Notes: generated from the sequence alone by a model not told the origin. Shown: positions 2,971-54,297, counted from the first letter of the stretch. The stretch is 64,000 nt of DNA from Patescibacteria group bacterium (GCA_022703425.1 JAKLDQ010000003.1:1729-65728); one strand, 5' to 3'. Numbers and translations are program-made.

Positions 2971-4482
2971 ATGAATATTTGGAAAAAAGAAAAAATAAGA
3001 GTTAGGATTGCACCGTCTCCGACGGGCGCTTTACATATTGGAACTGCGCGAAGCGCGCTTTTTAATTATTTGTTTGCAAAAAAGAACAAAGGATCATTTA
3101 TCCTCAGGATTGAAGATACCGACCTTGAAAGATCGGATTTGAAATGGACACAGGATATAATCGATGGTTTAAAATGGCTGGGAATTGAATGGGATGAGGG
3201 TCCTGATATCGGCGGTGCGTTCGGCCCCTATAAACAAACTCAGCGCATTGAGTCGTATACAAAATACCTCGAAAAACTTTTGGGCGAGGACAAAGCATAT
3301 TTCTGCTTTTGCTCTTCAAAAGATCTCGAAGAAAAAAGGCAGGAACAAATGACTAGGGGAGCGGCTCCAAAATATGACGGAACATGTGCTCATCTTTCAA
3401 AAGAAACCGTCAAAAAAAATATTTCGGAAGGGAGGCCGTCTGTCATCCGGTTTAGAATGCACGAGAAGAAAATAAAATTTAAGGACCTGATAAGGGGGGA
3501 AATCGAATTCGATACCGGACTGATGGGGGATATTGTTATTGCAAAAGACACAAAAACTCCGCTGTATAATTTTGCAGTGGTTGTTGATGATTATGAGATG
3601 CAAATTTCGCATGTAATCCGAGGCGAAGACCACATTGCAAATACGCCGAAACAAATGATGCTGCAGGATGCGCTTTCGTTTAAGCCGCCGGCATATGCCC
3701 ATATTCCTTTAATCCTTGCTCCTGATCGCTCAAAGATGAGTAAAAGGTATGGGTCTGTATCAATCTCAGATTATAAAAACATGGGTTATTTGCCCGAGGC
3801 AGTTATAAATTTTATGGCATTGCTTGGCTGGAATCCGGGAACTGAAAAAGAAATCTTTTCGCTGTCACAGCTTGAAAAAGAATTTTCGCTGGACAAGGTT
3901 CAAAAAGCGGGCGCCGTTTTTAACATTCAACGGCTGGATTTTATAAACGGATACTATATCCGCGAGAAATCGGATAAAAAGGTTGCTGAGCTTTGCTTGC
4001 CGTATCTGATGTCTGCCGGATTGATTGACGGGAACCGAAAAATCAAAGGAGGAGAAGAAGTTTCGGAAAAAAAGCTTGAAAAAATAATCCAGGCATACAA
4101 GGCGCGGCTGAAAAAACTTTCTGAAATTGTTGAACTTGCAGATTTCTTTTTCAAGGAAAAGCTGGAATACAACATGAATAAGTTAAAATGGGGGACTATG
4201 GATTATGCACAGACAATTGAATCGCTAAATTATTCAGAGAAAATATTGTCTGAAATTGATAATTGGGAGCAGAAGATTTTAGAAGAGAAGTTGATGGGTG
4301 CAGCAACAAAATTCAATTTGGAAAAAGGATATCCGGAGAAGAACAGGGGATACTTGCTTTGGCCGCTGCGAGTCGCCCTTTCTGCAAAGGAAGCGTCTGC
4401 CAGTCCGTTTGAGATTGCAGATATTTTGGGAAAGGAAAAAACGTTGCAGAGAATAAACGATGCAATAGAGGCGCTCGCCTAG
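2971..4482 (+). CDS. gltX: glutamate--tRNA ligase
   Basis: RIAPSPTGALHIGTAR (HIGH) and KMSKR (KMSKS) class I motifs. Start moved to ATG 2971 (MNIWKKEKIRVRIAPSPTG); the ORF-track start 2917 overlaps murG. Confidence 0.93.
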   Translation: MNIWKKEKIRVRIAPSPTGALHIGTARSALFNYLFAKKNKGSFILRIEDTDLERSDLKWTQDIIDGLKWLGIEWDEGPDIGGAFGPYKQTQRIESYTKYLEKLLGEDKAYFCFCSSKDLEEKRQEQMTRGAAPKYDGTCAHLSKETVKKNISEGRPSVIRFRMHEKKIKFKDLIRGEIEFDTGLMGDIVIAKDTKTPLYNFAVVVDDYEMQISHVIRGEDHIANTPKQMMLQDALSFKPPAYAHIPLILAPDRSKMSKRYGSVSISDYKNMGYLPEAVINFMALLGWNPGTEKEIFSLSQLEKEFSLDKVQKAGAVFNIQRLDFINGYYIREKSDKKVAELCLPYLMSAGLIDGNRKIKGGEEVSEKKLEKIIQAYKARLKKLSEIVELADFFFKEKLEYNMNKLKWGTMDYAQTIESLNYSEKILSEIDNWEQKILEEKLMGAATKFNLEKGYPEKNRGYLLWPLRVALSAKEASASPFEIADILGKEKTLQRINDAIEALA

Positions 4483-4551: not shown

Positions 4552-4944
4552 ATGCAAAGAAAAAACAGCGGATTTATAAAATATCTCGCATTAATAATTA
4601 TTGTTCTCGGTGTGGTTTTTGTGAGCCAGCAGCCGTATTTCAAAAAATATGGTGAAAATCTTGTTTCTGAGGGGGCAAGCATGGGCCAATCCTATATTGC
4701 GAGCGGTTCTGCATGGCTTAAGGATCATCTTTTGGAATCCCTATCGGGGGAAGTGGAAAAGAGGGGAGAGGCGGCAATGGACACCGTGGAAGAAACAAAG
4801 GAAAATATTTCCGATGGCGCTGCAACAAAAATAAAAGATTATTTTTCCGGAATAGTGGATGCAGTGATCCATCCGGGGAAAAGCGCGGTAACTGAACAGC
4901 CGGCAAATTGTCCGCCCGTTGCAAACCCTTATCCGACAAAATAG
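4552..4944 (+). CDS. hypothetical membrane-anchored protein
   Basis: 130 aa ORF with one N-terminal hydrophobic helix (YLALIIIVLGVVFV). No recognisable domain. Confidence 0.5.
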   Translation: MQRKNSGFIKYLALIIIVLGVVFVSQQPYFKKYGENLVSEGASMGQSYIASGSAWLKDHLLESLSGEVEKRGEAAMDTVEETKENISDGAATKIKDYFSGIVDAVIHPGKSAVTEQPANCPPVANPYPTK

Positions 4945-4965: not shown

Positions 4966-4994
4966 TTGACACGGCCTGGGGGACGGTTTAATAT
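4966..4994 (+). promoter_or_regulatory. sigma70-like promoter (TTGACA-17-TAATAT)
   Basis: TTGACA 4966-4971, 17-nt spacer, TAATAT 4989-4994, about 50 nt upstream of the ATG at 5045. Confidence 0.5.
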
Positions 4995-5044
4995 AGATAT
5001 AACAAAGTGAGTATAATATCTCTTACACTCAATTTATAAATATA

Positions 5045-6340
5045 ATGAATCAGAAATATTTAAGCAGAAAACCCATTATTGAACACATCGAACCCTTTCT
5101 ATTTTATTGTGCTCAGGAAGGGCTAAAGGAAAAAACAATCGTAAATTACAGTAGATTCCTAAATAAATTTTTGTTGTGGATTAAAGATAGGAATTTTGAT
5201 AGCCTACTCCCCCATCAATTAACATTAGACTATATAAATGACTACCGATTATACCTATCTAAAATTGAAAGTGCAAACCAAAAAGGTAAAAACCTTCATT
5301 TAATCACCCAGAACTACTATTTAATCGCTTTAAGGGCATTTTTAGGCTATTTTGTGGCCAAAGACGTACTTTCCCTACCCCCAGACAAAATAGCTCTTTC
5401 TAGGCCTGTTAATGGCTCCAAAGGCTACAAATATCCCACTAATAAAGAAATTGAGGCGCTTTTATCTGCACCTGATTTTAATAGTATTCTGGGTTTAAGA
5501 AATAAGGCTATATTATACACGATTGCTTTTACGGGCACTAAAGTTCAAAGGCTTGTTGCATTAAACAGAGATTCTTGTGACATTCTGCCCCAAACCATTT
5601 CAAATGTAGTAAAAAATTATTTGAGGTCAAGAAATGACTCAGAGGAAGCTTTGTTTATTAACTACAACGGCCGTAAAGATGCTTCACGCAGATTGACCCC
5701 GAGAATGATAGAAAGGATCGTAAAAAAATACGGAAACAAAGTTGGAATTTCTAATTTGACGCCCGAAAATCTTCGTTCAGCAAATATCATTTCTATGTGG
5801 AACAAAAAGGTTGACGTTGGTAATGTAAGCTGGAAGAAATTTGAAGGCCAGGTAGAAATTAATCATAATTTTTTAAAACAAAATATCTCTGTTTTGCCTG
5901 ATAGGTTTCGAAGCCAGGCTCCTTTAGCAAACCTAATAAGCTGCGATGATTGTGTATTTAGAAAAATTGCAATATTAATTTCTGCCAAAATTATAAGAGC
6001 TTACAGGGCCCGAATTTCAGATATATGGCCCGGCTTTTACTTTGATATGAGCGGGCAAAATTTCTCGCGCCACGGGAAGGAATGGCATCGTAAAATGATC
6101 GATGCGGTTGGGCAATATCATAAAAAAAACGGAGCGGAAATTTCAATTGAACCCGTTTTAGATTATGGGCGGGCAGACTTGGGTATTACAAACAAAAACA
6201 TTTATATTGAAATTGGCACTGTTTCGGTATTTAAGATTTGGTACAATTTAATGGTAATGCCAGAATGTACATTTATTCTTGTGCCAAGCGAAGACACTAT
6301 TATTAAGCTTGAAAAGCATGAAAATATTTTTACCACTTAA
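5045..6340 (+). CDS. degenerate tyrosine-recombinase-like protein fused to a C-terminal PD-(D/E)xK-like (putative nuclease-fold) domain
   Basis: The N-terminus resembles an integrase SAM-like core-binding domain. The catalytic-domain positions are substituted: TGTKVQRL instead of TGLRxSEL, PENLRSA instead of HxLRHS, and no LGHxxxxTTxxY. The C-terminal ~160 aa (HGKEWHRKMID...YGRADLGI...IYIEIGT) looks like a restriction-endonuclease fold. Confidence 0.6.
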   Translation: MNQKYLSRKPIIEHIEPFLFYCAQEGLKEKTIVNYSRFLNKFLLWIKDRNFDSLLPHQLTLDYINDYRLYLSKIESANQKGKNLHLITQNYYLIALRAFLGYFVAKDVLSLPPDKIALSRPVNGSKGYKYPTNKEIEALLSAPDFNSILGLRNKAILYTIAFTGTKVQRLVALNRDSCDILPQTISNVVKNYLRSRNDSEEALFINYNGRKDASRRLTPRMIERIVKKYGNKVGISNLTPENLRSANIISMWNKKVDVGNVSWKKFEGQVEINHNFLKQNISVLPDRFRSQAPLANLISCDDCVFRKIAILISAKIIRAYRARISDIWPGFYFDMSGQNFSRHGKEWHRKMIDAVGQYHKKNGAEISIEPVLDYGRADLGITNKNIYIEIGTVSVFKIWYNLMVMPECTFILVPSEDTIIKLEKHENIFTT

Positions 6341-7256
6341 AGAAGATTATTTGCTAAATCTAAAATCAAATAATTACTCCGACGAAACTGTCTATAATTA
6401 TGAGAGAGATATCGAGGTTTTTGAGAACTTTTTAAGGGATACCGGAGTAGCCTTTGATAAAATTGACAAAAAAACGATTTTAAATTATAAAGCTTATCTT
6501 ATCTCACGGGACCGGCAAACGCCCAAGGCTGGAAAAGGCCTTATAAAATTAAATGCCTTTTCCATTAACCGAATGCTATCTGCGTTGAGGTCATATTTGA
6601 AGTTCATTATTCAAATGGACTATATTTCTCCGATTTCGCCTACGAACATTGAATTAGTAAAAACAATAAAGAAACACCCGAGAGTTTCTGAGTTCGAGGA
6701 GGTCGTCAAAATAATTGAATCGCCTGATAAATTTGAGAAAGATGAGTTTGTTGCCAGAAGAAATCGGGCCATGCTTGAAATACTGTTCTCTACAGGTATG
6801 CGCATATCGGAATTATTAAATCTTAAAAAAGAGCAAATAGATAACACTGGTCGAATTTTCATTCGAGGCAAAGGCAAAAAAGAAAGGTTTGTCTATTTAA
6901 CGGAGCGCGCTCAAAAGCATATAAAAGATTATTTGGGTATAAGGGACTCCGATTCAGCGTATCTTTTTATTCCCCTTCGAGGGATGAATGCTCACAATAA
7001 AGACAAAAAAATCTCCGCGAATTATCTACAGGAGAGAGTGAAGAGATATAGAGAGCTCTTAGAAATTAACATTCCTCTGTCCTGCCACTCCATTAGGCAT
7101 GCGTTTGCAACCTATCTTGCAGAAAATGGCGCAAACCCTGCAGCAATTCAGATACTTCTCGGACACGAATCATTAGACACTACAACTAGATATGTCCATG
7201 CCTCGGATAGATATGCTGAAGATACGCATAAAAAATTTCATCCTTTAAAAAAATAG
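6318..7256 (+). CDS. site-specific tyrosine recombinase, XerC/XerD family
   Basis: ARRNRAMLEILFSTGMRISELLNL, GKGKKER, HSIRHAFATYL and LLGHESLDTTTRYVH together give the complete R-K-H-R-H-Y set. Its start overlaps the end of the previous gene. Confidence 0.88.
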   Translation: MKIFLPLKEDYLLNLKSNNYSDETVYNYERDIEVFENFLRDTGVAFDKIDKKTILNYKAYLISRDRQTPKAGKGLIKLNAFSINRMLSALRSYLKFIIQMDYISPISPTNIELVKTIKKHPRVSEFEEVVKIIESPDKFEKDEFVARRNRAMLEILFSTGMRISELLNLKKEQIDNTGRIFIRGKGKKERFVYLTERAQKHIKDYLGIRDSDSAYLFIPLRGMNAHNKDKKISANYLQERVKRYRELLEINIPLSCHSIRHAFATYLAENGANPAAIQILLGHESLDTTTRYVHASDRYAEDTHKKFHPLKK

Positions 7257-7294
7257 TTCCACAGCGGAAAAGACCTCAAGGAATAATGCCTGTT

Positions 7295-7307
7295 TGTCGC
7301 ACAATAA
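7295..7307 (-). repeat. 13-mer TTATTGTGCGACA, copy 2 (reads on minus strand)
   Basis: Exact copy 38 nt after the recombinase stop, in opposite polarity to that gene. On the plus strand TTGTCG(7294)-17-TAAAAT(7317-7322) forms a promoter-like element for the LAGLIDADG gene. Confidence 0.9.
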
Positions 7308-7344
7308 GATATTTGCTAAAATAAGGTTATTAAAACAAAACAAC

Positions 7345-7833
7345 ATGGAAAAAATCAACATTGCTGCGCTTGTAAATTCTGACGGATGCTTTGATTTGCA
7401 GTTCAGAAAAGACACAAGGCATGAAAGAACCAATGCGCCGACATACTACCGCTGGAAAATACAGTTTGTTGTGACCGGGCCGAAAGAAAGCGCCAAATTA
7501 ATGCAAAAAATAAAAAACGAACTTGAGTGTGGCGAGGTTCATATTACGCGAGACCAAGCGCGATTTTCCGTCCAGAAAATTGACGACATAACGTCTGTTG
7601 TAATTCCATATTTTACAAAAAACAAGTTGGCCGACAAAAAGAGGAAGGATTTTGAGTTGTGGCAAAAAGCAGTTGAAATAATTCATAAAAATAAAGGAAA
7701 ACGCCTGTCCGGCTGGAAAAAGAACGATCTCCACTCGTTGATTGAGATCCAAAAGTCGTGCTCAAAATACAAAAATAGGCCAAGGAGCTCAAAATGGCTG
7801 GAAATGGCTCAAACGCTCGCAAAAACGGTGTAA
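7345..7833 (+). CDS. LAGLIDADG-family homing endonuclease (single-motif type), free-standing
   Basis: IAALVNSDGCF (LAGLIDADG-like motif) and VVIPYFTKNKLADKKRKDFELWQKAVEII are typical of LAGLIDADG HEGs. Start set at ATG 7345. Confidence 0.8.
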   Translation: MEKINIAALVNSDGCFDLQFRKDTRHERTNAPTYYRWKIQFVVTGPKESAKLMQKIKNELECGEVHITRDQARFSVQKIDDITSVVIPYFTKNKLADKKRKDFELWQKAVEIIHKNKGKRLSGWKKNDLHSLIEIQKSCSKYKNRPRSSKWLEMAQTLAKTV

Positions 7834-7834
7834 G

Positions 7835-7868
7835 AAAAAACGGCTCAACGAGCGTTGAGCCGTTTTTT
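7835..7868. terminator. bidirectional intrinsic terminator, AACGGCTCA hairpin family
   Basis: A6-AACGGCTCAACG ag CGTTGAGCCGTT-T6. Confidence 0.75.
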
Positions 7869-7902
7869 AGTCCCCTACTTTATACTGGATTTGTAAGAAA
7901 AT

Positions 7903-7915
7903 TGTCGCACAATAA
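7903..7915 (-). repeat. 13-mer TTATTGTGCGACA, copy 3
   Basis: Exact copy 13 nt after the stop (7929-7931) of the minus-strand DUF3298-like gene, same polarity as that gene. Confidence 0.9.
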
Positions 7916-7928
7916 AACAGAGGGCAAT

Positions 7929-8744
7929 TTAATTCAATTTTGCAGAAAGCGGTCCGGCCGGATCAATGAAGTCTTTAAATTCGGGGTAAGGAATTGTTAC
8001 CTCCTGCGGGCCGGCGGCATATGCGGCAACCTGATATTGCTGGAACAAGATAATTATACCAAAATCATTAAAGCCGACATTGGTATTATAATTATCAGAT
8101 TTTGGCTCTGTCCCCTCTTTTACCCATTCCTCATTGGTCATGGCATTATCTCCCTTTGTAATGTTTGCAATCAAATAATCGCGTGAAAAATCAGATATTT
8201 TTTTTAAATACTCAGAATCGCTTTTAAACACACTATTCCACTCAACCGGCTTGCCGGTTGAAAGATTATAATTTAAATAAACATAATTGGTAGCACCGTG
8301 CGCGCCGCCGGTGAACCTGTAATATTCCATTCTGACAGATAAAATCCGATCAATCACATTGTATGCTTCCGGCAGCGCATAAAATTCACAGGTCCAGTCG
8401 GGGGCATTATCTCCCAGTTTTGAAAAATCGCAATTTTCTCTGGCATCGTTTTTAAACGATTCTGCAACCGCGAACACCGACGATTTGATATGAGCATTTA
8501 TATCTTCCTTTGCCTGACTGTCTCTGATGCCCGAGAACACGGGATAAGTCACTTCTGTTGTATAATTGTCGGCTTTATTTACCTCTTTTTCTGTAATGTT
8601 CTCTTTCGAAATTACAATCTGGTCTATCTGCCTGCTTGCAAGACTTCCGGCTATCGATTTTATTTGGTCCAAATATTCGATTGCTAAAAAAATTCCGGCT
8701 GCAAGTATGACTAATATTAATGCAATAGTAAATATTTTTCTCAT
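7929..8744 (-). CDS. DUF3298/DUF4163-like membrane-anchored protein
   Basis: N-terminal TM helix. YRFTGGAHGATNYVYLNYNLSTGK and FQQYQVAAYAAGPQEVTIPY match my recollection of the DUF4163/DUF3298 (RsiV/PdaC-like) pair. Confidence 0.7.
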   Translation of the reverse strand: MRKIFTIALILVILAAGIFLAIEYLDQIKSIAGSLASRQIDQIVISKENITEKEVNKADNYTTEVTYPVFSGIRDSQAKEDINAHIKSSVFAVAESFKNDARENCDFSKLGDNAPDWTCEFYALPEAYNVIDRILSVRMEYYRFTGGAHGATNYVYLNYNLSTGKPVEWNSVFKSDSEYLKKISDFSRDYLIANITKGDNAMTNEEWVKEGTEPKSDNYNTNVGFNDFGIIILFQQYQVAAYAAGPQEVTIPYPEFKDFIDPAGPLSAKLN

Positions 8745-31944: not shown

Positions 31945-31989
31945 TTAATTTAAAGCAAAAAACCGGCTGTCCGTACCGGTTTGGCATTT

Positions 31990-32002
31990 TGTCGCACAAT
32001 AA
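31990..32002 (-). repeat. 13-mer TTATTGTGCGACA, copy 5
   Basis: Exact copy 3 nt after the rnhA stop (32006-32008), same polarity, followed by a terminator hairpin. Confidence 0.9.
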
Positions 32003-36034: not shown

Positions 36035-36037
36035 ACG

Positions 36038-36050
36038 TGTCGCACAATAA
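36038..36050 (-). repeat. 13-mer TTATTGTGCGACA, copy 6
   Basis: Exact copy 1 nt after the gtrA-like stop (36052-36054) and 3 nt before the dnaX ATG (36034). Confidence 0.9.
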
Positions 36051-49529: not shown

Positions 49530-50366
49530 CTACTTATAATACGCTCTGTCTTTAAAGCGCAGATCGATATATTGCAACCCCCTCCTCTGCTCCGGGGCGA
49601 TCTCGTCATTCAGCAGCGAATTCATTCGAGTAATCTGCGCAGACGCATCCGCTTCGAGATTAAAATAAATCTGCCAATCTTCTGATGTTTGTATGTTTAA
49701 CCGTAAAGGATTTGTCACAAGCGCATCCATCACATCAATATCGAAATTACTTTTCAGATTTTTATCTATCTCTGAAATAAAGGCGATGACTTTTGAATTA
49801 ACAACATTTTCGCCCGTGGAAATGTCTGACTTTGAAAGGTCTTGTCGCACAATAGCCATGTCGGCCGGAATATCATAAATCTCCTCGTAAATAATCCCAC
49901 TTGCGTCCATTAAAAAGCATTTTTCACCCGAAATCTCGCTTAAAAAGGCGCAAAAAACAGCGGTCGGCGTACGCTCCTTAACTAAAACCGAAATTGTTTC
50001 CGGCCAGCTTTTTTTAACTTGTGCGCTTCCAATCTTCGGATATTCTGCCAGAATGTGCTGGCTGATGGCACCCGTATTCACAAGCAGCATGCTTTTGGTT
50101 GAAACCTTCCAGCCAAAGAGATCGATTAGCCTTATTTCTGAATCTAGATTTACAAGTTTTTTTATATCGTTTGTCGCAATCTGCACATTCCCGGCAATAT
50201 TAATATTGTTGACCTGAATTTTTTTAAAAAACAAAGTAAAATAAATTGCGCTGATTAAAAGCACGACAGCCAAGGCAAGATACCAAAAAAACGCCATTAA
50301 ATAAAACGGAGTTTTTGGCTTTATCTTTTGGATTTTTCTCTTTATATGCCCTTTTCTATATGACAT
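49530..50366 (-). CDS. ftsQ: cell division protein FtsQ (POTRA domain)
   Basis: Basic N-terminus, single TM helix and POTRA-like segment (VNNINIAGNVQIATNDIKKLV), in a murF-proximal context. Confidence 0.78.
   Translation of the reverse strand: MSYRKGHIKRKIQKIKPKTPFYLMAFFWYLALAVVLLISAIYFTLFFKKIQVNNINIAGNVQIATNDIKKLVNLDSEIRLIDLFGWKVSTKSMLLVNTGAISQHILAEYPKIGSAQVKKSWPETISVLVKERTPTAVFCAFLSEISGEKCFLMDASGIIYEEIYDIPADMAIVRQDLSKSDISTGENVVNSKVIAFISEIDKNLKSNFDIDVMDALVTNPLRLNIQTSEDWQIYFNLEADASAQITRMNSLLNDEIAPEQRRGLQYIDLRFKDRAYYK
49843..49854 (-). repeat. 13-mer family, 12/13 copy (TATTGTGCGACA) inside ftsQ
   Basis: In the sense orientation of ftsQ, encoding ..AIVRQ.. Confidence 0.6.
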
Positions 50367-52662: not shown

Positions 52663-54297
52663 TTAATTTTTTGTGAGCAGTTTTATCAATTTTTCGGGTA
52701 CCCTGCCCTCGAGCAGGACAGTGTCATCCTTTTTGCACAAAAGCGTTATGGTCTGGTAAATATCCTTTGAATCCTCGCAGTATATAATATTTCTCTCTTT
52801 CATTCCAGTCTCCATAGCTCCTCTTTTGATGTCATTAAATCTTTCCTTTGTTGTAATTATGCACATATCACATATTTCCCCGATTTTTTTTCCAAGCTTA
52901 TAATGAACTTCGGCGGATTTTTTTCCCAATTCAATAAGACAAGGCATTACAACAACTTTCTTTTGGGAGAAAATATTTAAATAATCGAGATCTGCCAAAG
53001 CGCCATCCGGGTTCGATGAATAAGATGAATCAATCACATTAATCCCGTGCACACCGGTTTTCTTTATCATTCCCGCCATTTCCTCCTTTATTTCTGAACA
53101 GGCCTCGGAAATTTGAGTCAAACTCATTGAAAGCTCCCTGGCAGTCAGAATTGCACCAAGCAAGTTCTCGACGTTTTGTCCGCCCAAGACATTTACCTTA
53201 AAATGGCCTATTTCTCTTCGCTTGTTTATCGTAACAAATGAAATTTGATTTTCAGTGATAGAGATGTCCTCTGTCCAGATGTCCAGATCAACGATTCCCT
53301 TCTCTCTTCCATAAATCCTCCGGTTTCCGACAGGAGGCAGGTCTGCGCGCTTATATAAATCAAGACAATATCTGTTATCTCCGTTTAAAAATAAAATCCC
53401 GTTTTTGCCGAGAGCGTTTGCTAATTCTCCTCCGCCTTCTGCCGACAACAGATTTTCCATTGTGCCGAACAATGACAGGTGCTGTTCGTTGACTCCGGTA
53501 ACAATTCCGAAGTCCGGCTTTACTATGTCGCACAATAAACTTATTCCTCCTTTGTTATATGATCCCATTTCCACAATAAAAATTTCGTGTTCTTTTTTTA
53601 AGTCGTTCAAAATACAATTCGCAATTCCAATCTCCGAATTCTGGTGCTCTTTTGTGCAAAGCACATTGTATTTTTTTGAAAGAATGGCAGTTAAAAATTC
53701 CTTTGTTGATGTTTTTCCGTAGGATCCTGTAATTGCAATTACCTTCGGTTTTCCGTAAACCGTTTTGAAATTTGCCATCTTTATTGAAGCTTTTTTCAGG
53801 ATTATGCTTCTCAGCAAAACAAAAAACGGCTGAAACGCCAGAACGATTGCAGAGACTACAAAAACAAAAAAGATATCGAAAACCAGTATATATAAAAGCG
53901 CCTGAGCATCATTTGTTATAAATACAGAGACCCATGTGATAAACAGAAAAACAATAATTAATGAAGCAAGCGACAGCAAGAGCGTTTTGGATGTTTTCTT
54001 CGGCTTTAAAACTGATTTTCGGTATATCGCGCGAAAAAATGATGCCGATTCAAAAACGTAAATTAAGAACAGCGCAGAAAAAAGATAAGAAATCAGCCAT
54101 GGAGAAAAAATAAGCAAAAAAGCGATTAAAATTTTTGAGTAAAACCAAAAATTAAAAATCAGCTTTCTGCCTTTGCTTGTTCTAAAGTGGTCAACAAATC
54201 GGCCGACGTGATAATCCTTCAGCTGCCAAAGAAAAAGCCAAAAAAGGACAAATTTTACAGTCCTAAAAAGCCAAACTGTGTTTAGAAGCAAAAACAT
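52663..54297 (-). CDS. murF: UDP-MurNAc-tripeptide--D-alanyl-D-alanine ligase (MurF-type Mur ligase) with polytopic membrane N-terminus
   Basis: AITGSYGKTSTKE P-loop at residues ~188-200, with Mur ligase middle and C-terminal domains. The first ~170 aa are 5-6 hydrophobic helices. Confidence 0.85.
   Translation of the reverse strand: MFLLLNTVWLFRTVKFVLFWLFLWQLKDYHVGRFVDHFRTSKGRKLIFNFWFYSKILIAFLLIFSPWLISYLFSALFLIYVFESASFFRAIYRKSVLKPKKTSKTLLLSLASLIIVFLFITWVSVFITNDAQALLYILVFDIFFVFVVSAIVLAFQPFFVLLRSIILKKASIKMANFKTVYGKPKVIAITGSYGKTSTKEFLTAILSKKYNVLCTKEHQNSEIGIANCILNDLKKEHEIFIVEMGSYNKGGISLLCDIVKPDFGIVTGVNEQHLSLFGTMENLLSAEGGGELANALGKNGILFLNGDNRYCLDLYKRADLPPVGNRRIYGREKGIVDLDIWTEDISITENQISFVTINKRREIGHFKVNVLGGQNVENLLGAILTARELSMSLTQISEACSEIKEEMAGMIKKTGVHGINVIDSSYSSNPDGALADLDYLNIFSQKKVVVMPCLIELGKKSAEVHYKLGKKIGEICDMCIITTKERFNDIKRGAMETGMKERNIIYCEDSKDIYQTITLLCKKDDTVLLEGRVPEKLIKLLTKN
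53526..53538 (-). repeat. 13-mer TTATTGTGCGACA, copy 7 (inside murF)
   Basis: Exact copy in the sense orientation of murF, encoding ..SLLCDI.. Confidence 0.9.

Follow-up and report, generated by a model that had tools for sequence, protein, structure and literature searches.

A 64,000-nucleotide stretch of DNA from a Patescibacteria group bacterium (GCA_022703425.1 JAKLDQ010000003.1:1729-65728; the window hereafter) carries two overlapping open reading frames, ORF1 and ORF2, immediately downstream of a 28-bp sequence that resembles dif. With modest confidence, drawn from sequence comparisons, we read this locus as a dif/Xer chromosome-dimer-resolution module that comprises a catalytic recombinase of the Xer2 type (ORF2) and a non-catalytic, nuclease-like accessory protein (ORF1). 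ORF1 consists of a degenerate recombinase of a second type, Xer1, followed by a C-terminal domain (CTD) similar in layout to PD-(D/E)xK nucleases. An earlier reading of the window, made from the sequence alone (the sequence-only reading), had drawn attention to an overlapping pair at 5045-7256. Both frames were found there, with an overlap of 23 nt when ORF2 begins at its annotated ATG; the ORF2 frame is open from TTG 6279. Coordinates of all features are given in Table 1.

The dif-like site emerged from a comparison of loci as the non-coding 22-mer with the highest conservation around the operon, and it is nearly invariant. It shows an 11-6-11 inverted-arm architecture with inner positions ATAA-N6-TTA, which are those of canonical dif, and its consensus from 113 distinct sites is AAnTGAGTATAA TAwCyC TTACACTCAnTT. 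The site is present with at most 4 mismatches in 14 fetched fused-type loci (L001-L006, L008-L015), usually 5-16 nt before the first gene, and the ORF1 proteins of these loci are 31-45% identical. It is also found ahead of xer2 in L019 and L020. Elsewhere in the window, no match has fewer than 8 mismatches. When metagenome contigs were scanned with the exact pattern, at least 120 stretches were returned, each with one copy of the site, and the site was absent from the 2.9 million viral contigs scanned. The sequence-only reading had suggested a search for a 28-bp dif-like site; it had missed this one, which lies in the same region as the promoter that it proposed.

Among the matches listed, an ORF2-type gene adjoins the site in every retrieved locus with enough sequence, typically at a distance of 18-100 nt and in either orientation. 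The 39 classifiable loci among these matches fall into 25 with xer2 only (at least 900 nt downstream of xer2 without a detected CTD or second Xer gene), 7 with a site-xer2-CTD(-xerX) arrangement and 7 of the window type. The CTD, with or without a dead Xer, is present in about one third of the sampled loci. Since no CTD or second Xer gene was detected nearby in many relatives, and since the two arms are nearly identical, Xer2 would be the catalytic enzyme, probably on both arms. ORF1 is best seen as an accessory to the dif/Xer module, because in many relatives only the site and an ORF2-type gene were detected over that distance. From its sequence and setting, the 28-bp site is very probably the dif of an ORF2-type (Xer2) single-recombinase system.

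The orientation of the site relative to the genes is constant in window-type loci (20/20) and flips in some xer2-only loci. The gene-proximal outer arm reads CTCATAA in 12 of the 20 window-type loci versus none of 25 xer2-only loci. This arm might mark a different occupant, although shared ancestry and the nearby start codon confound the comparison.

ORF2 is the intact partner that the sequence-only reading had described. It matches PF00589 at 2.2e-37 and the SAM-like N-domain PF02899 at 2.6e-11, and alignment with intact Xer proteins shows a complete catalytic set (Arg-I, Lys-β, His-II, Arg-II, His/Trp-III and Tyr) within the motifs TGMR, GKGKK, HSIRH, LGH and RYVH. Its scores fall below all NCBIfam equivalog cut-offs: 198.8 versus 335.15 bits for XerC, 194.4 versus 329.6 for XerD, 184.3 versus 220 for XerA and 96.9 versus 267 for XerS. 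By these profile scores, ORF2 is a Xer-group recombinase of a separate subgroup and not a XerC, XerD, XerA or XerS equivalog. ORF2 possibly belongs to 'Cand', a subgroup mentioned for the Xer-related recombinases from candidate phyla (PMC8138268). Orthologues of ORF2 are 66-75% identical across loci where those of ORF1 are 31-45% identical. ORF2 is presumed to be the catalytic enzyme for the dif-like site.

The first 255 residues of ORF1 carry a tyrosine-recombinase fold, as indicated by PDB profile matches to XerC-like, XerD and XerA proteins (3e-24 to 7e-20). The SAM-like N-domain is the only Pfam match above threshold, in agreement with the proposal that ORF1 keeps the core-binding domain. 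Partial NCBIfam matches to XerA, XerD and XerS profiles were also obtained, those to XerA and XerD at residues 18-185 and 183-247. Foldseek retrieves Int, XerH and Cre, as well as the catalytically inactive repressors YopR, MrpR and SroF (E ~1e-3). The AlphaFold 2 (AF2) model of ORF1 has a pLDDT of 91.5 and a pTM of 0.75. ORF1 and ORF2 share 23% identity over 246 residues (E 7e-10).

The catalytic positions of ORF1 were compared in 66 members of its family aligned with seven intact Xer proteins. Arg-I is replaced by Lys in 60 members, including ORF1, and is Arg in the other 6. The β-hairpin Lys is deleted in 46, again including ORF1, and His-II is Glu in all 66. Arg-II is kept in all 66 and corresponds in ORF1 to the R of PENLR. 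His-III is kept in 55 and deleted in 11, and the nucleophilic Tyr is kept in 54 and deleted in 11. ORF1 lies in the subclade of 11 of 66 members in which the entire segment from His-III to Tyr is deleted, and is therefore incapable of tyrosine-recombinase chemistry. The sequence-only reading, which saw no conserved Arg, His or Tyr, was right for Arg-I, His-II, His-III and Tyr, and wrong for Arg-II. Apart from Arg-II, the residues are substituted or deleted in the alignment rather than merely shifted, a possibility that had been raised.

A search of 5.8 billion proteins returned more than 100 full-length relatives of ORF1 (418-502 aa, 31-53% identical, 96-98% query coverage). All source-named homologues are assigned to Patescibacteria, Parcubacteria or Paceibacterota, and the family is confined to Patescibacteria. 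The N-terminal part of ORF1 is 45-47% identical to the three intact Xer1-type proteins that were aligned and only 23% identical to ORF2; P0105, the Xer1-type protein of L016, is among its closest intact relatives. Because this part is nearer to the intact Xer1 type than to ORF2, ORF1 is viewed as a Xer1-type paralogue that has lost catalysis and has been fused to an accessory protein.

The CTD is a compact, conserved domain of about 170 residues that has no Pfam model. Modelled alone, it gives a pLDDT of 91.3 and a pTM of 0.86. The predicted structure starts with an N-terminal helical half, followed by a helix (345-361) and strands at 366-368 (IEP), 379-381 (ADL) and 386-390 (YIEIG), then by a helix (395-404) and two further strands (409-415 and 418-424). 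The predicted core is thus α-β-β-β-α-β, the order of PD-(D/E)xK nucleases. The motif GRADLG...YIEVGT resembles that of PD-(D/E)xK nucleases. Residues W263, E267, R306, W347, H348, G375, D378, E389 and N401 are invariant in an alignment of fused and stand-alone members (A5), and K397 is invariant among the fused proteins and nearly so overall. K397 and N401 lie in the helix that follows the third strand. The invariance of D378, E389, H348 and N401, whether the CTD is fused or stands alone, suggests a functional pocket.

The Pfam family PDDEXK_9 matches 10 of 32 CTD members over exactly EP..GRADLG..YIEV, and single members match VRR_NUC (one) and YraN (one) below threshold. In Foldseek searches of the PDB, Hjc, I-Bth0305I, a Vsr-like protein and Vsr are retrieved at E 1-3.4. 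A search of BFVD returns a 'PD-(D/E)XK nuclease' (E 0.025, probability 0.93) together with Vsr-like, DUF559 and restriction-endonuclease-like proteins. These weak matches are enriched in PD-(D/E)xK proteins. The window CTD alone has no Pfam match at E<=10, a PDB sequence-profile search with alignment A5 gave only noise, and searches of PHROGs, NCBIfam and PADLOC gave nothing consistent. The N-terminal helical half (W..E..WL, CxxC..RKIAILI) is without a match. On the model and these profiles, the CTD is likely to have a PD-(D/E)xK fold; that it is also an active nuclease is a tentative suggestion, on which we lean slightly to the negative side. The nuclease-like extension of the sequence-only reading thus stands as a separate folded domain with the IEP, RADLGI and IYIEIGT elements, and its nuclease fold is probable only, all family matches being sub-threshold. 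The structure prediction and Foldseek search that it had advised gave a confident fold and only weak, PD-(D/E)xK-enriched matches.

A scan of 1.84 billion representative proteins with a CTD profile HMM found only 147 clusters. In those examined, the CTD is either fused after a Xer-like N-terminal part or is a stand-alone protein of 160-190 aa. The gene neighbourhoods, whose survey had also been advised, are consistent with this division. Of 15 fetched loci, 14 have an ORF2-like gene right behind the fused ORF1-like gene, as do L143 and L144. Sister lineages encode the CTD on its own. L017 and L018 have the order xer1 (intact), CTD, xer2 (intact). L019 has an intact xer2 whose product is 63% identical to ORF2, then the CTD, then a degenerate Xer of a third type (271 aa), and L020 has the same xer-CTD-xer order. 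The short contig L021 carries the CTD and then a more degenerate Xer of 266 aa, and L073 has xer2 and the CTD with nothing else. L007 carries an intact Xer1-type gene ahead of the fused degenerate gene, and in L016 the gene for P0105, a lone intact Xer1-type protein, occupies the same syntenic slot.

Because the CTD is a separate gene beside xer2 in sister lineages, ORF1 can be recognised as a gene fusion, in which a degenerate second Xer is joined to an accessory protein associated with Xer. The second Xer beside the CTD is degenerate in at least two lineages, as the Xer1 type in the window and as the third type in L019 and L021. This repeated degeneration, together with the fusion, speaks for physical cooperation between the CTD and a recombinase-type DNA-binding module at or near the Xer2-dif complex. 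The fusion, which the sequence-only reading did not recognise, is indeed without a description in Pfam, NCBIfam, PADLOC or the literature searched. On Xer or dif in the candidate phyla radiation (CPR) and on recombinase-nuclease fusions, that literature yielded only the mention of the 'Cand' subgroup. It held no paper on a CPR dif site, none on a dead Xer partner in these bacteria and none on a PD-(D/E)xK-like protein associated with a recombinase.

Two further proteins, P0201 (298 aa) and P0241 (273 aa), have the N-terminal part of a CTD followed by a recombinase-catalytic-like segment, the reverse of the domain order in ORF1; in P0201 the CTD ends after strand 2. They may be genuine CTD::Xer fusions, or artefacts in which adjoining genes were merged by a frameshift or in assembly. 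Loci with an intact Xer1-type first gene also differ in their upstream sequences. L016 (4860-4890) and L017 (4007-4034) have a different palindromic candidate, GTCG(C/T)A(C/T)AATGTA(G/C)GTTAAGCGAC. L007 (~1990-2030) and L018 (~3960-4000) have sequences of the GGTTCGC(A/T)T(A/T)A type, and in L007, which has TTACACT as well as GAGTATAA elements, their order is swapped. From the sequences around the first xer gene, no convincing dif-like site could be delimited in L007 or L018.

The dif-like site is probably at or near the replication terminus and occurs as a single copy per retrieved stretch. Of 12 metagenome loci that extend 2.5 kb or more both ways from the site, 11 have positive GC skew on its left and negative GC skew on its right; so do 13 of 17 earlier loci. 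The cumulative GC skew of the window peaks at about 7-8 kb, and gene orientation flips between 7833 and 7929. In two 21-kb loci (L143 and L144), all or nearly all called genes converge on the operon. The neighbours of the pair in the window are housekeeping genes (gltX, uppS, L27, pyrG, dnaK, dnaB, PBP2, Mur ligase), and the synteny murD/ftsW/murG/gltX ... pair ... uppS/L27/pyrG is kept across many genomes. Neither FtsK nor SMC was found among the large ORFs of the window.

Beyond the placement of the site, the skew peak and the flip of orientation from + to - occupy about 5000-8000 of the window and recur in L143, L144 and 24 other loci, and the arrangement murD-ftsW-murG-gltX ... xer ... uppS/pyrG/L9 is conserved with its genes converging. 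Because skew peak, orientation flip and conserved synteny coincide, a cell-division and cell-wall gene cluster appears to end at the probable terminus in these Patescibacteria.

In the dif/Xer module that we favour, ORF2 would be the sole catalytic tyrosine recombinase and would act on the near-palindromic 28-bp site by the terminus. ORF1 would be a non-catalytic accessory, composed of a dead Xer1-type paralogue that keeps the core-binding domain and most of the catalytic scaffold, and of a small PD-(D/E)xK-like protein fused at its C-terminus. Through its recombinase-type module, ORF1 would bind at or beside dif, or to Xer2, which would place the nuclease-like domain in the synaptic complex. 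There, the CTD might process a DNA intermediate, such as the Holliday junction left by one pair of Xer2 strand exchanges, or control the firing of Xer2. The sequences show the structure of the genes, the loss of catalytic residues in ORF1, the conservation, the site with its neighbouring xer2, the switch of skew, and the split and fused architectures. We infer, and do not observe, that the site is dif, that the CTD has a nuclease fold, that ORF1 joins the Xer2-dif complex, and that any enzymatic activity is present.

Several points weigh against this module. The two arms of the site resemble each other and change symmetrically (in L003, and at outer positions in xer2-only loci), which fits one protein reading both arms, or base pairing. 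A Xer2 homotetramer would suit this symmetry, with neither arm evidently left to ORF1. ORF1 may take no part in recombination, as the site and Xer2 seem to suffice in most relatives. The site lies in the 5' leader of the operon and can form a hairpin, so that it may have an operator or RNA role; the site and leader gave no family match in Rfam. Most members of the ORF1 family keep Tyr and His-III, and all keep Arg-II, and the longer ones may retain residual chemistry. The CTD has Gly at the position of the canonical (D/E)xK Lys, for which K397 is a putative substitute. No profile or structure match of the CTD is significant: the best PDDEXK_9 match has an E of 0.0025 (about 17 bits versus a cut-off of 25.5), the best Foldseek values are E 0.17 in the PDB and E 0.011 in BFVD, and hhalign of the CTD profile against the single P. 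furiosus Hjc sequence (1gef) gives a probability of 1%. GC skew is confounded with gene orientation, and both copy number and terminus position were read from retrieved contig stretches and loci, not from complete genomes.

A 14-nt motif, TTGTCGCACAATAA, suggests another role for ORF1. It has the form (TT)GTCGCACAAT(AA), and 8 exact copies are present in the window versus 0.09 expected. The core GTCGCACAAT is also found in L001, L003, L010-L012, L015, L030, L054, L073, L092, L101, L143 and L144. All 10 copies left of the dif-like site lie on the - strand, and 22 of the 23 copies right of it lie on the + strand, intragenic sense and antisense copies included. ORF1 could thus be a terminus-organising factor that acts away from dif, its Xer1-derived module reading polar GTCGCACAAT copies that flank dif in opposite orientations, and its CTD helping to trap forks, to unload SMC (the role of B. 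subtilis XerD at XDS) or to give orientation in a KOPS-like system. Besides the over-representation of the motif and its change of polarity at the site, this would account for the distribution of GTCGCACAAT: fused-type loci (152 kb) have 13 copies, xer2-only loci (208 kb) none and xer2-CTD loci (55 kb) 1, and the 21 kb of L144 have 10. GTCGCACAAT is also the left arm of the palindromic candidate site 5' of intact Xer1-type genes (GGTCGCACAATGTAGGTTAAGCGACG in L016 and TGTCGTATAATGTACGTTAAGCGACA in L017), and P0105 is close to the N-terminal part of ORF1.

However, the link between the motif and the ORF1 type is confounded by phylogeny, the fused-type genomes being one clade. The intergenic copies are mostly 1-13 nt after a stop codon, beside terminator-like hairpins, so that a role in the transcript is possible, and copies also precede LAGLIDADG genes and resemble a -35 element. 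GTCGCACAAT may therefore be a 3'-UTR or terminator element, a -35-like promoter element or a LAGLIDADG homing target. The Xer1-type candidate site comes from two loci, and a reading of the motif by ORF1 would have to be assumed. Nor does a terminus factor explain the stand-alone CTD beside xer2 in lineages without a dead Xer1. We therefore regard it as unlikely, though worth keeping in view, that ORF1 is such a factor, and likewise that the dead-Xer::nuclease-like protein reads a polar GTCGCACAAT motif derived from a Xer1-type dif half-site and flanking the terminus. If it did, Patescibacteria would have built a terminus-organising system from a decommissioned recombinase and a PD-(D/E)xK module. 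Such a system could trap forks, unload SMC, orient a DNA translocase or, as a site-directed nuclease, act on unresolved chromosomes. The 14-nt motif was also considered as dif itself and was rejected, as it is multi-copy.

The position of the 28-bp site between a promoter-like element and a start codon would also suit a simple operator. ORF1 would then be a mere autoregulator or architectural protein that binds the leader palindrome in the manner of MrpR, YopR or SroF, the inactive-recombinase repressors retrieved by Foldseek, and its CTD would oligomerise or sense a ligand without catalysis. The missing (D/E)xK lysine and the much faster evolution of ORF1 than of ORF2 agree with this. But the site is equally conserved in loci where no ORF1-like or CTD gene is detected near xer2, and its conservation is therefore independent of ORF1. 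The flips of site orientation relative to the gene in some xer2-only loci are unusual for an operator or leader element, and the invariant CTD residues suggest a functional pocket. An autoregulator appears a little less probable still than a terminus factor. Tandem recombinase genes with an adjoining homing endonuclease are common in mobile DNA, and the loss of catalytic residues could indicate decay, but the pair is most improbable as an integrase module of a prophage or mobile element, and ORF1 as a decaying Xer duplicate: the prophage-integrase reading is rejected on the conserved housekeeping synteny and the absence of the site from the 2.9 million viral contigs scanned, with no phage genes among the window genes examined, and the pseudogene reading by the large full-length family with many invariant residues and the confident AF2 model.

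As a dif/Xer module, the locus can be compared with several known systems. XerS/difSL of streptococci and lactococci and XerH/difH of Helicobacter and Campylobacter are single-recombinase dimer-resolution systems. Like them, the locus has one catalytic Xer and an imperfect palindrome of about 28-31 bp with a 6-bp centre, close to the gene and to the terminus, and most of its relatives consist of exactly the site and xer2. Unlike them, the window lineage also has a second Xer, which is dead and joined to a PD-(D/E)xK-like domain; ORF2 also differs from XerS in falling below the NCBIfam XerS cut-off. The E. coli dif site is GGTGCGCATAA TGTATA TTATGTTAAAT. With XerC/XerD-dif, the locus shares two paralogous Xer-family proteins, an 11-6-11 site with ATAA-N6-TTA and a terminus location. 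In XerC/XerD-dif both partners are active, the arms differ, the genes lie away from dif and FtsK-γ exerts control, whereas in the window only one partner is intact, the dead one bears an additional domain, and the arms hardly differ.

The recombinase fold is also used non-catalytically, by a streptococcal XerD-like protein (NCBIfam NF002685) and by B. subtilis XerD at XDS in SMC unloading. As in these proteins and in MrpR, YopR and SroF, the fold in ORF1 would serve as a sequence-specific DNA-binding module with catalysis lost or unused. ORF1 differs from all of them in having a PD-(D/E)xK-like domain and in sharing an operon with an active Xer beside a dif-like site. ORF1 has no match to NF002685, which ORF2 matches weakly. 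The CTD resembles PD-(D/E)xK families (PDDEXK_9/DUF1703, VRR-NUC, YraN, Hjc and Vsr) in its predicted core, with Asp at strand 2 and Glu in strand 3, and its GRADLG...YIEVGT compares with the GRxDl...iiElK type of these families. It differs from them in that all matches are sub-threshold, in the Gly that stands for the signature Lys, and in the extra N-terminal helical half. By functional analogy, it is also reminiscent of TnsA, the restriction-like nuclease partner of Tn7 TnsB, in that a small nuclease-fold protein is paired with a different kind of recombinase.

Polar motifs related to the terminus include KOPS/FtsK, the skewed 'architecture imparting sequences', Tus-Ter and RTP-Ter. In common with these, GTCGCACAAT is polar, and its strand changes at the dif-like site (32 of 33 copies). 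At 10-14 nt, it is longer than KOPS, and in the terminus-proximal DNA covered most copies are intergenic, just behind stop codons.

In the literature searched, we found nothing on chromosome dimer resolution in Patescibacteria/CPR. A candidate dif and its recombinase that can be read from sequence would provide a terminus marker for these mostly uncultured organisms with fragmentary genomes. For the tyrosine-recombinase field, the locus raises the question of what a restriction-nuclease-like protein does beside Xer, and also why the second Xer by the CTD degenerates in at least two lineages and, in one of them, was joined to it. A nuclease might process the Holliday junction instead of a second tyrosine-recombinase exchange; alternatively, the protein might be an FtsK-independent control device or organise the terminus.

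Table 1. Features of the locus and exact copies of the 14-nt motif, in window coordinates.
Feature	Coordinates	Strand	Basis or remark
Putative promoter, sigma-70-like, TTGACA-17-TAATAT	4966..4994	+	10/12 consensus matches in a consensus scan; 5' of dif-like site and operon
dif-like site AGTGAGTATAA|TATCTC|TTACACTCAAT	5006..5033	.	inverted 9-11-bp arms, 6-bp centre, 11 nt before ORF1 ATG
ORF1, degenerate Xer1-type recombinase paralogue + CTD, 431 aa	5045..6340	+	ORF call
ORF1 core-binding (SAM-like) domain, residues 18-113	5096..5383	+	Pfam PF13102 4.7e-05, PF13495 7.6e-05
ORF1 catalytic-domain remnant, residues ~128-255	5426..5809	+	alignment with seven intact Xer proteins and 66-member tally
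ORF1 CTD, residues 261-431, PD-(D/E)xK-like	5825..6337	+	AF2 model, sub-threshold profile and fold matches
ORF2, intact Xer2-type tyrosine recombinase, 312 aa	6318..7256	+	ATG 6318 is the public gene call
LAGLIDADG homing-endonuclease gene	7345..7833 (likely start ATG 7345)	+	Pfam LAGLIDADG_1 1e-14, PADLOC HEase 8e-15
Motif TTGTCGCACAATAA	4494..4507	-	left of dif-like site
Motif TTGTCGCACAATAA	7294..7307	+	just before LAGLIDADG gene
Motif TTGTCGCACAATAA	7902..7915	+	after LAGLIDADG gene, 13 nt from stop of convergent gene 7929..8744
Motif TTGTCGCACAATAA	14589-14602, 31989-32002, 36037-36050, 49842-49855, 53525-53538	all +	exact copies

The promoter named by the sequence-only reading was recovered by the consensus scan, and TTGACA/TTGACT-17-(-10) elements can also be read 5' of the first xer gene in L016, L018 and L007. 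Between gltX and the dif-like site lies a small ORF (4552-4944, + strand) whose 130-aa product has a hydrophobic stretch at the N-terminal end and belongs to no Pfam family. In most homologous loci, this slot is filled by small unannotated ORFs of 100-146 aa.

The homing endonuclease that had been noticed after the pair is a LAGLIDADG gene. Two direct 14-bp TTGTCGCACAATAA copies bracket it and define a 608-bp insertion-like unit between xer2 and a convergent PdaC-like gene. The gene is probably an insertion that lies outside the Xer module. It is absent from L143 and from the four homologous loci with gene calls that were first examined; L144 (12237-13034) has a LAGLIDADG gene that is 49% identical, in the same place and again just after motif copies. 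The GTCGCACAAT-type motif may be the homing target of this endonuclease or the promoter of its gene (TTGTCG-17-TAAAAT). The cassette was also considered as an IMEX, an element that Xer integrates at dif and that two dif-like sites flank, and this was ruled out, as the flanking 14-bp repeats are copies of the dispersed TTGTCGCACAATAA and not of the 28-bp site. A perfect terminator-like hairpin with a T-run (aaaaaacggctcaacgagcgttgagccgtttttt) follows the gene at 7835-7868 and was not listed by a simple terminator scan.

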